From assembly GCF_965641715.1 (NCBI RefSeq), contig NZ_OZ282453.1: 64,000 nt of DNA; one strand, written 5' to 3'. Numbering within the stretch: position 1 is the first letter of the stretch; every line of letters begins with the position of its first letter. Of this stretch, positions 1 to 46,187 are shown piece by piece. The DNA is from Escherichia coli (lineage in GTDB: Bacteria > Pseudomonadota > Gammaproteobacteria > Enterobacterales > Enterobacteriaceae). Position numbers and translations under genes: made by a program. The notes beneath the pieces were generated by a model. It was not told the DNA's origin. It made no database searches and worked only from the letters and a program-made list of their open reading frames with translations.

Positions 1-342
1 ACCGAGTTCCCGCACGCCGACGACATCACTATGCTGGGCGGTCACTCCTCTCATAGCTATCAGAACGGCACCAACATGTACTTCGTCTACGACTACAACG
101 TTGTCAACTGTAAGCCGGAAGAGGAAATCGACAAGTACCACAATCCGCTCAACAAAATCATTTGCGAAGAAACCATTCGCCTCGGTGGTTCGATGGTGCA
201 CCACCACGGTATCGGTAAACATCGCGTTCACTGGAGCAAGCTGGAACACGGCAGCGCGTGGGCGTTGCTGGAAGGGCTGAAAAAGCAGTTCGATCCTAAC
301 GGCATTATGAATACGGGTACTATCTATCCGATTGAAAAATAA
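1..342 (+). CDS. ygcU: FAD-linked oxidoreductase, C-terminal fragment (5' end lies outside window)
   Basis: Open frame runs from window edge to stop at 342 with no upstream stop in frame; name assigned from synteny immediately upstream of ygcS. Confidence 0.55.
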   Translation, partial: TEFPHADDITMLGGHSSHSYQNGTNMYFVYDYNVVNCKPEEEIDKYHNPLNKIICEETIRLGGSMVHHHGIGKHRVHWSKLEHGSAWALLEGLKKQFDPNGIMNTGTIYPIEK

Positions 343-435
343 TGTGTCAGGCAGCGTTCCGCGATGATGGGGCGTTGCCTTTTCGGCTTCTCAGGCGAGA
401 AGCCGTTCTTATTACCGGACAATGAAGGGGTAAAG

Positions 436-1773
436 ATGAACACTTCACCGGTGCGAATGGATGATTTACCGCTTAACCGTTTTCACTGTCGAATTGCTGC
501 GCTCACTTTCGGCGCGCACCTGACCGACGGTTATGTTCTCGGCGTCATTGGTTACGCCATTATTCAGCTTACGCCCGCCATGCAACTGACGCCGTTTATG
601 GCGGGAATGATCGGCGGCTCGGCGCTCCTTGGTTTGTTTCTTGGCAGCCTGGTTCTTGGGTGGATCTCCGACCATATTGGTCGGCAAAAAATCTTCACCT
701 TCAGCTTTTTGCTGATTACGCTCGCTTCGTTCTTGCAATTTTTTGCCACCACGCCAGAGCATCTTATTGGACTGCGCATTTTGATCGGCATTGGTCTGGG
801 AGGCGATTACTCAGTAGGTCACACCTTGCTGGCTGAATTTTCCCCGCGCCGCCATCGCGGTGTTTTGCTGGGCGCATTCAGCGTGGTGTGGACCGTAGGC
901 TATGTGTTGGCAAGTATTGCCGGACATCACTTTATTTCCGAAAACCCGGAGGCCTGGCGCTGGCTACTGGCATCGGCAGCTCTGCCCGCGTTGTTGATTA
1001 CGTTATTACGCTGGGGAACGCCAGAATCGCCACGCTGGCTACTGCGCCAGGGGCGTTTTGCAGAAGCTCACGCTATCGTGCATCGCTATTTTGGTCCCCA
1101 TGTTTTACTGGGCGATGAAGTGGCAACGGCGACCCATAAACACATCAAAACCTTGTTCTCTTCGCGCTACTGGCGGCGCACGGCGTTTAACAGCGTCTTC
1201 TTTGTCTGCCTCGTAATCCCATGGTTTGTGATTTATACCTGGCTGCCAACTATCGCCCAGACTATTGGACTGGAAGATGCGCTGACTGCCAGCCTGATGC
1301 TTAATGCGTTGTTAATTGTGGGCGCGCTGCTGGGATTAGTTCTGACGCACCTGCTGGCACATCGCAAGTTTTTGCTGGGAAGTTTTTTGCTGCTGGCGGC
1401 AACGCTGGTAGTGATGGCCTGTTTGCCTTCCGGCAGTTCATTAACGCTACTGCTTTTTGTTCTCTTCAGCACCACCATTTCGGCAGTCAGTAATCTGGTG
1501 GGCATTTTGCCTGCGGAAAGTTTTCCTACTGACATTCGCTCGCTGGGCGTCGGTTTTGCCACCGCCATGAGTCGGTTGGGGGCGGCGGTAAGTACTGGCC
1601 TGCTGCCGTGGGTGCTGGCGCAGTGGGGAATGCAAGTCACCTTATTGCTCCTGGCAGCAGTGTTGTTGGTTGGTTTTGTTGTAACCTGGCTATGGGCACC
1701 AGAAACCAAAGCACTCCCGCTGGTGGCGGCGGGAAATGTAGGAGGTGCGAATGAACATTCTGTTAGCGTTTAA
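436..1773 (+). CDS. ygcS: MFS-family transporter (445 aa)
   Basis: ORF 364..1773; internal ATG at 436 preceded by GAAGGGG RBS gives MNTSPVRMDD N-terminus; hydrophobic multi-helix protein. Confidence 0.85.
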   Translation: MNTSPVRMDDLPLNRFHCRIAALTFGAHLTDGYVLGVIGYAIIQLTPAMQLTPFMAGMIGGSALLGLFLGSLVLGWISDHIGRQKIFTFSFLLITLASFLQFFATTPEHLIGLRILIGIGLGGDYSVGHTLLAEFSPRRHRGVLLGAFSVVWTVGYVLASIAGHHFISENPEAWRWLLASAALPALLITLLRWGTPESPRWLLRQGRFAEAHAIVHRYFGPHVLLGDEVATATHKHIKTLFSSRYWRRTAFNSVFFVCLVIPWFVIYTWLPTIAQTIGLEDALTASLMLNALLIVGALLGLVLTHLLAHRKFLLGSFLLLAATLVVMACLPSGSSLTLLLFVLFSTTISAVSNLVGILPAESFPTDIRSLGVGFATAMSRLGAAVSTGLLPWVLAQWGMQVTLLLLAAVLLVGFVVTWLWAPETKALPLVAAGNVGGANEHSVSV

Positions 1774-35304: not shown

Positions 35305-37866
35305 TTACACCAGACTCTTCAAGCGATAAATCCACTCCAGCGCCTGACGCGGGGTGAGTGAATCCGGATCGAGGTTTTCCAGTGCCTCGACCGCAGGCGA
35401 GGTTTCTTCCGGTACGGACAGCAAAGACATTTGCGTACCATCCACTTGCGTAGCGGCGGCGTTCGGCGAAATGCTTTCCAGCTCACGCAGTTTTTGCCGT
35501 GCGCGCTTAATAACCTCTTTTGGCACGCCGGCCAGAGCTGCAACCGCCAGGCCGTAGCTTTTGCTCGCCGCGCCATCCTGCACGCTATGCATAAAGGCAA
35601 TGGTGTCGCCGTGCTCCAGTGCATCGAGATGCACGTTGGCGACGCCTTCCATTTTCTCCGGTAACTGGGTCAGCTCGAAATAGTGGGTGGCAAACAGCGT
35701 CAACGCCTTAATCTTATTCGCCAGATTTTCCGCGCACGCCCATGCCAGTGACAGACCATCGTAAGTGGACGTTCCACGCCCGATCTCATCCATCAATACC
35801 AGACTATATTCGGTGGCGTTATGTAAAATATTGGCGGTTTCAGTCATCTCCACCATAAAGGTTGAGCGCCCGGAAGCCAGGTCATCTGCCGCGCCTACGC
35901 GGGTAAAGATGCGATCGATAGGTCCAATCTCGACTTTTTGTGCCGGTACATAGCTGCCGATGTAGGCCATCAGCGCAATCAGTGCGGTCTGGCGCATATA
36001 GGTACTTTTACCGCCCATGTTCGGGCCGGTAATAATCAACATCCGGCGCTGCGGTGACAGATTCAGCGGGTTGGCGATAAATGGCTCGTTCAGCACCTGT
36101 TCAACCACCGGATGGCGGCCTTCGGTAATGCGAATGCCCGGTTTATCAATAAAGGTCGGGCAGGTGTAGTTCAGGGTATAGGCCCGTTCCGCCAGGTTCA
36201 CCAGCACGTCGAGTTCCGCCAGCGCGCTCGCGCTCTGTTGCAACGCTTCCAGATGCGGCAACAGCAGGTCGAACAGCTCTTCATAAAGCTGTTTTTCCAG
36301 AGCCAGTGCTTTGCCTTTTGAAGTGAGGACTTTATCTTCGTACTCTTTTAGCTCTGGAATGATGTAGCGCTCGGCGTTTTTCAGCGTCTGGCGACGCATA
36401 TAGTTGATAGGTGCCAGATGGCTTTGCCCACGGCTGATTTGAATGTAGTAGCCGTGCACCGCATTAAAGCCAACTTTTAGCGTGTCCAGGCCGGTACGTT
36501 CACGCTCGCGGACTTCCAGACGCTCCAGATAATCGGTCGCGCCGTCAGCCAGCGCGCGCCACTCATCCAGCTCTTCGTTATAGCCCGATGCGATAACACC
36601 ACCGTCGCGTACCAGCACCGGCGGTGTGTCGATGATTGCTCGCTCCAGCAGATCGCGCAGCTCGGCAAACTCGCCCATCTTCTCACGTAGCGCCTGTACC
36701 GGTGCACTATCGACAGTTTCTAACTGCGCACGCAGCTCCGGCAGTTGCTGGAAAGCGTGGCGCATACGGGCCAGATCGCGTGGGCGAGCAGTTCGTAAAG
36801 CCAGACGTGCCAGAATACGTTCCAGGTCGCCGACCTGACGCAGTACCGGCTGTAGCCCGGCGGTGAAATCCTGCAATGCGCCAATAGTTTGCTGGCGCTC
36901 AAGCAACACGCGGGTATCGCGCACTGGCATATGCAGCCAGCGTTTCAGCATACGGCTGCCCATCGGCGTGACGGTGCAGTCGAGCACAGAAGCCAGCGTA
37001 TTTTCCGCACCACCCGCCAGGTTCTGGGTGATTTCCAGATTACGACGCGTCGCGGCATCCATAATGATGCTGTCCTGCTCACGTTCCATGGTGATGGAAC
37101 GAATATGCGGCAGAGTCGTACGTTGGGTATCTTTCGCATACTGCAACAGACAACCGGCAGCACAAAGTCCGCGCGGCGCGTTCTCGACGCCAAAACCGAC
37201 CAGATCGCGAGTGCCAAATTGCAGATTCAACTGCTGGCGCGCGGTGTCGATTTCAAACTCCCACAGCGGGCGACGGCGCAGGCCGCGACGGCCTTCAATT
37301 AACGACATTTCAGCAAAATCTTCTGCATACAGCAATTCCGCAGGATTAGTGCGTTGCAGTTCTGCCGCCATCGTTTCCCGGTCAGCCGGTTCGCTCAGGC
37401 GAAAACGCCCGGAACTGATATCCAGCGTCGCGTAGCCGAAACCTTTGCTGTCCTGCCAGATAGCCGCCAACAGGTTGTCCTGACGCTCCTGCAACAGGGC
37501 TTCATCGCTGATGGTGCCTGGCGTAACGATACGCACAACTTTGCGCTCAACCGGACCTTTGCTGGTCGCCGGATCGCCAATTTGTTCGCAGATGGCAACG
37601 GACTCTCCCTGATTCACCAGTTTGGCGAGGTAGTTTTCCACCGCATGGTAGGGAATCCCCGCCATCGGGATCGGCTCTCCCGCTGAAGCGCCGCGTTTGG
37701 TCAGTGAGATATCCAGCAGTTGCGACGCACGTTTTGCGTCGTCATAAAACAGTTCGTAAAAGTCACCCATCCGATAAAACAGCAGGATCTCGGGATGCTG
37801 GGCTTTCAGCTTGAGATACTGCTGCATCATTGGCGTATGGGCGTCGAAATTTTCTATTGCACTCAT
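35305..37866 (-). CDS. mutS: DNA mismatch repair protein MutS (853 aa)
   Basis: 853 aa, N-terminus [40 protein letters not shown]; Walker [10 protein letters not shown]. Confidence 0.98.
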
Positions 37867-38111
37867 GGGGTTATGTCCGGTTCCCTGATATTAAATGGGG
37901 TGTGATGGTTTTTATTTTCGTTGTAATCACATAAGGCGCACATGATACCGGAGTTAATCATTTCAGGGGAAGAAGCGAACGGCGAGTTCTTGATGCTGGT
38001 TCCGGGAAAGATGCTGTTTTGCAGCTTTTGCGTGATGCTTATGAAGCAAGTACGCAAAATTGCGTCGGTTGAATAAACCTCCTCCTTCAGAGCCATAGTC
38101 CCCTTTCAAAT

Positions 38112-38134
38112 TAAGTTGTAGTATAAATACACCT
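38112..38134 (+). promoter_or_regulatory. Candidate NsrR-type operator upstream of ygbA
   Basis: aagttgtagtataaatacacctt resembles the NsrR inverted-repeat consensus (AAGATGCATTT...AAATGCATCTT), right arm 9/11; about 20 bp upstream of ygbA ATG. Confidence 0.3.
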
Positions 38135-38152
38135 TAAGAGTATGGAGGCAGC

Positions 38153-38497
38153 ATGTCCGGCAAGCGTATCTCTCGTGAAAAACTGACGATTAAAAAAATG
38201 ATCGATCTTTATCAAGCGAAATGCCCGCAGGCGTCAGCGGAGCCGGAGCATTACGACGCGCTGTTTGCCTACGCGCAAAAGCGGCTGGATAAATGTGTGT
38301 TCGGCGAAGAGAAACCAGCCTGTAAGCAGTGTCCGGTGCACTGTTACCAGCCTGCAAAGCGTGAAGAGATGAAACAGATTATGCGTTGGGCCGGGCCGAG
38401 AATGCTGTGGCGTCATCCAATCTTAACCGTGCGTCATCTCATCGATGACAAGCGTCCGGTGCCGGAGTTGCCAGAAAAATATCGTCCAAAGAAATAA
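38153..38497 (+). CDS. ygbA: Nitrous-oxide-stimulated-promoter family protein YgbA (114 aa, cysteine-rich)
   Basis: 114 aa, N-terminus MSGKRISREKLTIKKMIDLYQAKCPQ; CxxC motifs; divergent from mutS. Confidence 0.88.
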   Translation: MSGKRISREKLTIKKMIDLYQAKCPQASAEPEHYDALFAYAQKRLDKCVFGEEKPACKQCPVHCYQPAKREEMKQIMRWAGPRMLWRHPILTVRHLIDDKRPVPELPEKYRPKK

Positions 38498-38535
38498 ATC
38501 TGCCGGAGAGCCATACTCTCCGGCAAATAAGGCGT

Positions 38536-38964
38536 TTACGCTTTGGTGGCAATCAGGATGGCTGATGCTTTGATCAATGCAATAACGCGTGAGCCAGTGG
38601 TGAGTTTCATTTCATCCTGACTTTCATTTGTTACCACTGCCACAATTTCAAAACCCGCATCCGTTTTGATATGGACAGTGGCGTTCACTGCGCCTTCGGT
38701 GATTGTCGACACGCTGCCAGCAAACTGGTTGCGAGCAGAGAATTTCAGTCCACAGTCTTCCGTTGCCAGCGTTACCCACGGGGCTTTAATCAGGGCAATC
38801 GCTTCTTTCCCTTTCGCCAGACCCAGAGCCTGCTGGCTGCTGTGAGTCACAATTGCCACCAGCTTTGCACCACCTGCCAGCGTCAGTTCTACTTCGTCAT
38901 TCACCGCACCCATTGCTACTGCGCTAACTGTTCCGGTTAATTGATTTCTTGCTGAAACTGCCAT
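38536..38964 (-). CDS. Standalone tandem-Mop (TOBE-domain) molbindin-like protein (142 aa)
   Basis: ORF 38536..39003; likely start at 38964 (GGAGG RBS 5 nt upstream) giving MAVSARNQLTGTVSAV; two internal repeats each beginning SARNQ(L/F)(T/A)G(T/S)VS and ending ALIKA, the Mop/TOBE molybdate-binding fold. Confidence 0.7.
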   Translation of the reverse strand: MAVSARNQLTGTVSAVAMGAVNDEVELTLAGGAKLVAIVTHSSQQALGLAKGKEAIALIKAPWVTLATEDCGLKFSARNQFAGSVSTITEGAVNATVHIKTDAGFEIVAVVTNESQDEMKLTTGSRVIALIKASAILIATKA

Positions 38965-39008
38965 ACTGCCTCCTTTCATTGAATGTTGATCGAGTATAAC
39001 CACATCTG

Positions 39009-44989: not shown

Positions 44990-45451
44990 ATGACTATTTG
45001 GGAAATAAGCGAGAAAGCCGATTACATCGCACAGCGGCATCGTCGCCTACAGGACCAGTGGCACATCTACTGCAATTCGCTGGTTCAGGGGATCACGTTA
45101 TCGAAAGCGCGCCTGCATCACGCCATGAGCTGCGCGCCGGACAAAGAACTCTGTTTCGTCCTTTTTGAACATTTTCGTATTTACGTCACCCTGGCGGATG
45201 GCTTTAACAGCCACACCATCGAGTATTACGTCGAAACAAAAGATGGCGAAGACAAACAGCGGATTGCGCAGGCACAACTGAGCATTGACGGCATGATTGA
45301 TGGCAAGGTCAACATCCGCGATCGCGAACAGGTTCTGGAACACTATCTCGAAAAAATCGCTGGCGTTTACGACAGCTTATACACCGCCATTGAAAACAAT
45401 GTGCCGGTGAATTTAAGCCAACTGGTAAAGGGACAAAGCCCGGCAGCATGA
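44990..45451 (+). CDS. hycA: Formate hydrogenlyase regulatory protein HycA (153 aa)
   Basis: 153 aa, N-terminus MTIWEISEKADYIAQRHRRLQDQW. Confidence 0.93.
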   Translation: MTIWEISEKADYIAQRHRRLQDQWHIYCNSLVQGITLSKARLHHAMSCAPDKELCFVLFEHFRIYVTLADGFNSHTIEYYVETKDGEDKQRIAQAQLSIDGMIDGKVNIRDREQVLEHYLEKIAGVYDSLYTAIENNVPVNLSQLVKGQSPAA

Positions 45452-45501: not shown

Positions 45502-45557
45502 TGTCGATGAGTGTCGAAAATGACATTTCATCGGCATGTTTTCGTCAAAAATGACAA
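45502..45557. promoter_or_regulatory. Candidate FhlA upstream activating sequence in hycA-hycB intergenic region
   Basis: tgtcgatgagtgtcgaaaatgacatttcatcggcatgttttcgtcaaaaatgaca; first 25 bp nearly identical to the element at 44851. Confidence 0.5.
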
Positions 45558-45575: not shown

Positions 45576-46187
45576 GTGAATCGTTTTGTAATTGCTGACT
45601 CCACGCTCTGTATCGGCTGCCACACTTGTGAGGCCGCCTGTTCAGAGACGCATCGCCAGCACGGCCTGCAATCAATGCCGCGCCTGAGAGTGATGCTGAA
45701 TGAAAAAGAATCTGCGCCGCAGCTCTGTCACCACTGTGAAGATGCACCCTGCGCGGTGGTCTGCCCGGTTAACGCCATCACCCGCGTTGATGGGGCCGTG
45801 CAGTTGAATGAAAGCCTGTGCGTAAGCTGCAAGCTGTGCGGCATCGCCTGCCCGTTTGGCGCAATTGAATTTTCCGGCAGCCGTCCGCTGGATATTCCGG
45901 CAAATGCCAATACCCCGAAAGCGCCACCGGCACCGCCTGCTCCGGCGCGTATCAGTACGCTGCTTGACTGGGTGCCGGGTATTCGCGCGATCGCCGTCAA
46001 ATGTGACCTTTGCAGTTTTGATGAACAAGGTCCGGCCTGCGTGCGGATGTGCCCGACTAAAGCCCTGCATCTGGTGGATAACACCGATATCGCCCGCGTC
46101 AGCAAACGTAAGCGTGAGCTGACCTTTAACACGGACTTTGGCGATCTCACCTTGTTTCAGCAGGCTCAAAGTGGAGAGGCTAAATGA
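45576..46187 (+). CDS. hycB: Formate hydrogenlyase subunit 2, 4Fe-4S ferredoxin (203 aa)
   Basis: 203 aa, N-terminus MNRFVIADSTLCIGCHTCEAAC; four CxxCxxCxxxCP clusters. Confidence 0.95.
   Translation: MNRFVIADSTLCIGCHTCEAACSETHRQHGLQSMPRLRVMLNEKESAPQLCHHCEDAPCAVVCPVNAITRVDGAVQLNESLCVSCKLCGIACPFGAIEFSGSRPLDIPANANTPKAPPAPPAPARISTLLDWVPGIRAIAVKCDLCSFDEQGPACVRMCPTKALHLVDNTDIARVSKRKRELTFNTDFGDLTLFQQAQSGEAK

Follow-up and report, generated by a model that had tools for sequence, protein, structure and literature searches.

A conserved NsrR operator overlaps the predicted ygbA promoter in Escherichia coli

A 23-bp imperfect inverted repeat at 38113..38135, upstream of ygbA, very probably serves as the operator for control of the ygbA promoter by the NsrR repressor (probability about 0.93). 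We analysed this site within a 64,000-nucleotide stretch of an E. coli genome (contig NZ_OZ282453.1), hereafter the window, to which all coordinates refer. The ygbA NsrR operator is an already known feature, and an initial annotation made from the letters of the window had placed one ahead of ygbA as an NsrR-regulon gene. That identification is upheld by the PWM score, the fixed position of the site, its conservation across genera and published regulation in K-12 and Salmonella. The features of the region are as follows.

35305..37866, minus strand: mutS, flanking the spacer.
38096..38101, plus strand: TAGTCC, predicted as a weak -35 hexamer at 17-bp spacing from the predicted -10.
38113..38135, strand not applicable: NsrR operator AAGTTGTAGTA-T-AAATACACCTT, an imperfect inverted repeat of 11-1-11 layout, assigned from PWM, conservation and literature alleles.
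38113..38123: left half-site AAGTTGTAGTA, the weaker arm (8.7 bits; 7/11 to AAGATGCATTT).
38119..38124, plus strand: predicted sigma-70 -10 hexamer TAGTAT, operator positions 7-12, conserved as TAnnAT.
38121, plus strand: rare allele G (commonly A), operator position 9 and third base of the predicted -10.
38125..38135: right half-site AAATACACCTT, the stronger arm (13.5 bits; 9/11 to AAGATGCATTT).
38131 (about), plus strand: predicted ygbA transcription start, ~7 nt after the -10, placed from the -10/-35 geometry.
38144..38148, plus strand: ygbA Shine-Dalgarno sequence GGAGG, read from the sequence, where a G-rich block is kept across species.
38153..38497, plus strand: ygbA coding sequence, the candidate regulated gene (114 aa, YgbA_NO family).

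The 23-mer quoted in the initial annotation, AAGTTGTAGTATAAATACACCTT, is present, but the coordinates given with it (38112..38134) were one base low. The accompanying claim of a 9/11 match in the right arm is correct: the reverse complement of that arm, AAGGTGTATTT, agrees at 9/11 positions with the perfect ytfE half-site AAGATGCATTT. Symmetry between the two operator arms extends to 8/11 positions. A generic inverted-repeat finder run over 38060..38160 with a 6-nt exact seed returned nothing because the arms are too imperfectly matched, with at most 4 nt of exact complementarity in a row; the operator is detectable as a motif match and not as a strong palindrome. Its centre at 38124 lies 29 bp upstream of the ygbA ATG (38153) and 258 bp from the mutS ATG, within a divergent mutS-ygbA spacer of 286 bp. 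The product of ygbA matches Pfam YgbA_NO with E = 4e-41, and aligned YgbA proteins from representatives of 13 other genera are 75-91% identical to it.

A scan with an NsrR matrix had been proposed as a check on the site. We built the PWM from the 27 sites of 11-1-11 type that PMC5320621, a ChIP-seq study of CFT073, lists in its Table 4, removing the ygbA entry and one duplicate to leave 25 sites, and symmetrised it. Scored with this ygbA-free matrix, the ygbA 23-mer reaches 22.4 bits and is the top match of the entire 64-kb window. The exact probability of that score is 1.4e-8 per position, corresponding to 0.0009 expected chance sites per 64 kb and 0.06 per 4.6-Mb genome, and none of 200 Markov-1 simulated windows reached the observed score (mean maximum 13.8, highest 22.0). 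The match is thus far beyond chance. The second match in the window, at 16.75 bits, is a published hycB site that served as an internal positive control for the PWM, and all others score at most 12.9 bits. This second NsrR-type site, AAATGACATTTCATCGGCATGTT, occupies 45518..45540 between hycA (44990..45451) and hycB (45576..46187).

Conservation of the site was assessed in 80 ygbA loci, one genome per species, from about 25 genera of Enterobacterales. Across the 80 species, the median score is 20.9 bits for the best PWM match within 200 bp upstream of ygbA and 6.35 bits for the best match elsewhere in each ~3-kb locus. An NsrR-type 11-1-11 palindrome upstream of ygbA is the top match of its locus in 79/80 species, and its centre falls 27-34 bp from the ygbA ATG in 78/80. 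Per-column information in 78 sequences anchored on the site defines a footprint of exactly positions 1-23 that falls off at both operator edges, with almost no conservation at -13 to -2 or past +27 of the alignment. Near-invariant columns are A1 A2, G6 T7 A8, A11 T12, T16, C18 A19 and T22 T23; among the outer ones, A1 is found in 77/78 species, A2 in 78/78, G6 in 77/78, C18 in 78/78, A19 in 75/78, and T22 and T23 in 78/78 each. The cross-species consensus of the right arm, AAATGCATCTT, is the exact NsrR consensus, and the left arm departs from that consensus at T7 (78/78) and A11 (77/78).

Published work places ygbA under NsrR control. According to PMC5320621, ygbA is known as an NsrR-regulated gene in E. 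coli K-12 (citing Bodenmiller & Spiro 2006) and its K-12 promoter is bound by NsrR in ChIP-chip (citing Partridge et al. 2009). The same study finds ygbA to be one of the most strongly induced genes in CFT073 producing endogenous NO from nitrate and lists a predicted NsrR site at the homologous ygbA position in its Table 4; CFT073 NsrR ChIP-seq gave no ygbA peak, which the authors judge to be a false negative. In a Salmonella nsrR mutant, ygbA mRNA rises 31.8-fold (PMC2884951). The nsrR gene itself lies outside the 64-kb window, and it is almost certainly present in the window's strain because 5425/5426 complete E. coli genomes carry it, 5297 of them with a copy at least 99% identical to the K-12 gene.

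The pattern of conservation points to a -10 hexamer embedded in the left arm of the operator. T7 is universal (78/78) although NsrR prefers C at this position, A11 occurs in 77/78 species although NsrR prefers T, and the central T12 is found in 78/78 although NsrR is neutral there; with A8 (78/78), these columns compose the TAnnAT of a sigma-70 -10 element. The only other conserved block is a TTG exactly 17 bp upstream of TAnnAT, where 72/78 sequences have G in the column corresponding to 38098 and neighbouring columns are near random. The E. coli version of this -35 matches TTGACA at 3/6 positions, and a consensus sigma-70 promoter scan called no promoter because the two hexamers match consensus at only 3/6 and 4/6 positions. 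This geometry would put the operator at about -18 to +5 relative to the predicted start. Such a predicted overlap of operator, -10 and +1 is the classical arrangement for a repressor that occludes RNA polymerase, and it suggests that NsrR acts by steric occlusion. Of the two arms the left is always weaker, which we attribute to its double use as the predicted -10. An alternative -10, TATAAA at 38122..38127, was rejected: 91% of species have A instead of T in the column of its last base, and its spacing from the conserved TTG would be 20 bp.

A working model can be drawn from these data and from a distant orthologue. In Streptomyces, NsrR is described as a [4Fe-4S] homodimer that binds DNA and loses binding on nitrosylation (PMC4432287, PMC5411485, PMC9338935, PMC11500311); the NO and iron-sulfur mechanism is carried over to E. 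coli by homology, PMC10783083 reporting no solved structure for an enterobacterial NsrR. NsrR would act as an Rrf2-family homodimer with an iron-sulfur cluster, its cluster-bound form contacting one 11-bp arm per subunit. Bound to the operator, it would cover the predicted -10 (38119..38124) and start (~38131), so that RNA polymerase is occluded and ygbA is silent. Nitric oxide would then nitrosylate the NsrR cluster and release the repressor from DNA, allowing ygbA to be transcribed.

The closest known sites agree with this assignment. The K-12 (MG1655) ygbA site AAGATGTAATATAAATACATCTT occupies the same position, 29 bp from centre to ATG, with the same 11-1-11 layout, invariant bases and embedded TAnnAT, and it scores 22.6 bits against 22.4 for the window. 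Three substitutions lead from K-12 to the window (position 4 A>T, position 9 A>G and position 20 T>C), and the arms match consensus at 8/11 and 10/11 in K-12 and at 7/11 and 9/11 in the window. The predicted CFT073 ygbA site, given on the opposite strand as AAGGTGCATTTATATTACAACTT in PMC5320621 Table 4, lies at the same locus, shares T4 and C20 and passed the authors' genome-wide PatSer threshold; it has A9 and G17 where the window has G9 and A17, two differences in all. The ytfE operator AAGATGCATTTAAAATGCATCTT is a perfect NsrR palindrome (31.9 bits) with which the ygbA site shares the 11-1-11 architecture, the outer AAG...CTT and the inner TG.A / T.CA determinants, but the ygbA left arm is degenerate, unlike that of the fully symmetric ytfE site, a difference we assign to the overlapping predicted -10. 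The hycB site belongs to the same motif class and is identical to a ChIP-seq-supported CFT073 sequence; it scores lower than the ygbA site, and under NO in CFT073 hycB is down-regulated and not induced, unlike ygbA. The source of the mechanistic model is [4Fe-4S]-NsrR at the hmpA operators of Streptomyces coelicolor, a member of the same regulator family that PMC4432287, PMC5411485 and PMC9338935 describe as binding a 23-bp inverted repeat as a holo-NsrR dimer, with NO abolishing binding, and as a distant orthologue with a three-gene regulon.

The embedded TAnnAT and the TTG 17 bp upstream could also mean that the element is nothing more than the AT-rich core promoter of ygbA, its -10 region conserved for promoter function and not for repressor binding; the centre of the NsrR motif (TTTnAAA) resembles -10 elements, and the missing ygbA peak in CFT073 ChIP-seq would fit. 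We regard this as very improbable. The NsrR-specific bases A1, A2, G6, C18, A19, T22 and T23 are the best conserved outside the -10, they reach about +5 relative to the predicted start, a region in which promoters require nothing similar, the right-arm consensus over species is exactly that of NsrR, and published nsrR mutants derepress ygbA. Equally little weight falls on the proposal that the palindrome is bound mainly by another regulator, be it NarL/NarP, FNR or an Rrf2 protein such as IscR. Induction of ygbA in nitrate-grown cultures would suit such a regulator, and by eye TACACCT at 38128..38134 matches the NarL heptamer TACYYMT at 6/7 positions. However, the partner heptamer of a NarL/NarP 7-2-7 site would fall at 38137..38143, which matches at only 4/7 by eye, varies more within E. 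coli than any other stretch and is unconserved between genera, so the pair of inverted heptamers, 2 bp apart and kept across orthologous promoters, that such a site would need is not found here. Nor does inspection by eye of the ygbA site reveal an FNR-like TTGAT-N4-ATCAA. The PWM that ranks the ygbA site first was trained solely on NsrR ChIP-seq sites, and deletion of nsrR by itself gives 32-fold ygbA derepression in Salmonella. An RNA element was also considered and rejected, whether a hairpin in the 5' UTR or a structure in the spacer: a transcript beginning at the predicted start would include only ~5 nt of the operator, and an Rfam scan of 37800..38600 (E <= 1) returned zero RNA families and gave no riboswitch or sRNA evidence in the spacer.

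The initial annotation further suggested that the site could influence mutS. An operator shared with the divergent gene would tie mismatch repair to nitrosative stress; the site does sit in the 286-bp spacer between the two genes, and ChIP studies of NsrR describe numerous sites whose regulatory effect is weak or not apparent. Yet 258 bp from the mutS ATG is too distant for occlusion-type repression, and mutS is unmentioned among NsrR targets and NO-responsive genes in the CFT073 ChIP-seq and RNA-seq study PMC5320621. In addition, mutS lies within 1.5 kb upstream of ygbA in only 23/80 species, and the operator is kept at an unchanged offset in the other 57. Control of mutS from this site is accordingly highly unlikely, and there is no basis for linking the operator to mutS. 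The fhlA-mutS interval is a known island-insertion hotspot, where Salmonella SPI-1 separates the two genes (PMC7232297).

E. coli genomes differ in the NsrR operator of ygbA but hardly at all in nsrR. An allele census by exact-match counts in 5426 complete E. coli genomes, 5419 of which hold the spacer, resolved seven alleles that differ only at operator positions 4, 9, 17 and 20 and sum to 5373 of those 5419 genomes:

K-12 type, AAGATGTAATATAAATACATCTT: 2111 genomes.
Common form of the window haplotype, AAGTTGTAATATAAATACACCTT: 1300 genomes.
CFT073 type, AAGTTGTAATATAAATGCACCTT: 1120 genomes.
O157 type, AAGTTGTAATATAAATGCATCTT: 682 genomes.
A2 type, AAGATGTAATATAAATGCATCTT: 119 genomes.
Window type, AAGTTGTAGTATAAATACACCTT: 34 genomes.
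19KM1776 type, AAGTTGTAGTATAAATACATCTT: 7 genomes.

No allele looks disabled, because all score 20.9-23.9 bits on the PWM, and the window's rare allele would be expected still to bind NsrR. The window carries G at 38121, A at 38129 and C at 38132. Its exact allele with G at 38121 occurs in 34/5426 genomes (0.6%), 7 more genomes have this G with a different right arm, and 1300 genomes have A at 38121 on the same haplotype. G at 38121 is predicted to be neutral because G recurs at operator position 9 in 7/78 species sites, mostly as TAGAAT in Citrobacter, and neither A nor G is the NsrR or sigma-70 consensus there. The whole 286-bp spacer of the window is 100% identical in strain 2018-05-2CC.

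The alleles sit in a sharply bounded divergent patch. Compared with K-12, the 80 bp at 38063..38142, covering the ygbA -35, operator flanks and 5' UTR, hold 21 differences, and there are zero differences in the 196 bp before it (37867..38062) and in the ~100 bp after it (38143..38250). The window-type patch haplotype is common to E. albertii and E. whittamii, the K-12-type haplotype is common to Escherichia sp. MOD1-EC7003, and mosaic forms occur in O6:H16, A2 and 19KM1776. The patch looks like an old, recombining promoter polymorphism. Within it, 3/23 operator positions differ against 18/57 elsewhere, a direction that fits protection of the operator but is not significant (Fisher p = 0.10). 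That the ygbA promoter is a site of regulatory micro-evolution in E. coli, combining old recombining haplotypes with the rare A>G change at 38121, strikes us as a rather doubtful proposition. If it were true, and the variants shifted basal ygbA expression or the NO derepression threshold, they would form a natural allelic series tuning one member of the NsrR regulon while the repressor itself stays nearly invariant.

Several further elements were observed around the operator. RefSeq/PGAP calls a 44-aa 'hypothetical protein' in the spacer (37942..38076, plus strand) in many genomes, and a 59-aa version in an O6:H16 strain reaches further towards ygbA. This ORF has no Pfam match, is without annotation in K-12, UTI89 and GN05652 (the latter two being the TOBE-carrying strains checked) and has a 1-bp indel near its 3' end in both UTI89 and E. 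albertii. The ORF call is probably spurious. A terminator-like hairpin lies mid-spacer at 38013..38025 on the plus strand (GCTGTTTTGCAGC followed by TTTTGCG), with no upstream gene on that strand needing a terminator and inside the doubtful 44-aa ORF. Downstream, between ygbA and fhlA, the window has a minus-strand gene for a TOBE-domain protein (Mop-like, molybdate-binding type) at 38536..39003, an ORF of 155 aa for which the PGAP version is 142 aa (38536..38964). This gene is missing from K-12, O157 and other strains, where the ygbA C-terminus differs (117 aa vs 114 aa). The convergent ygbA and TOBE genes are separated by a GC-rich hairpin with a 14-bp stem (38498..38528) and a T-run on the minus strand, which is probably the terminator of the TOBE gene and may work in both directions. 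In E. coli A2, from a platypus, the part of the spacer nearer mutS has given way to an IS3-family element (309..1471 of locus L008) beside a truncated truD, as far as ~100 bp ahead of ygbA; this element leaves the ygbA promoter and its near-consensus operator AAGATGTAATATAAATGCATCTT intact.

These results mainly confirm the annotation: ygbA in the window's strain keeps the NO switch described for K-12 and Salmonella and is expected to respond to nitrosative stress. To the known operator they add the breadth of its conservation, a predicted embedded -10 that explains the asymmetry of the arms, a count of its alleles across E. coli and the rarity of the one in this strain. The pairing of operator and ygbA has been kept over about 25 enterobacterial genera whatever the neighbouring genes, and a link to NsrR so tight and so old makes the YgbA protein, rather than the operator, worth studying.
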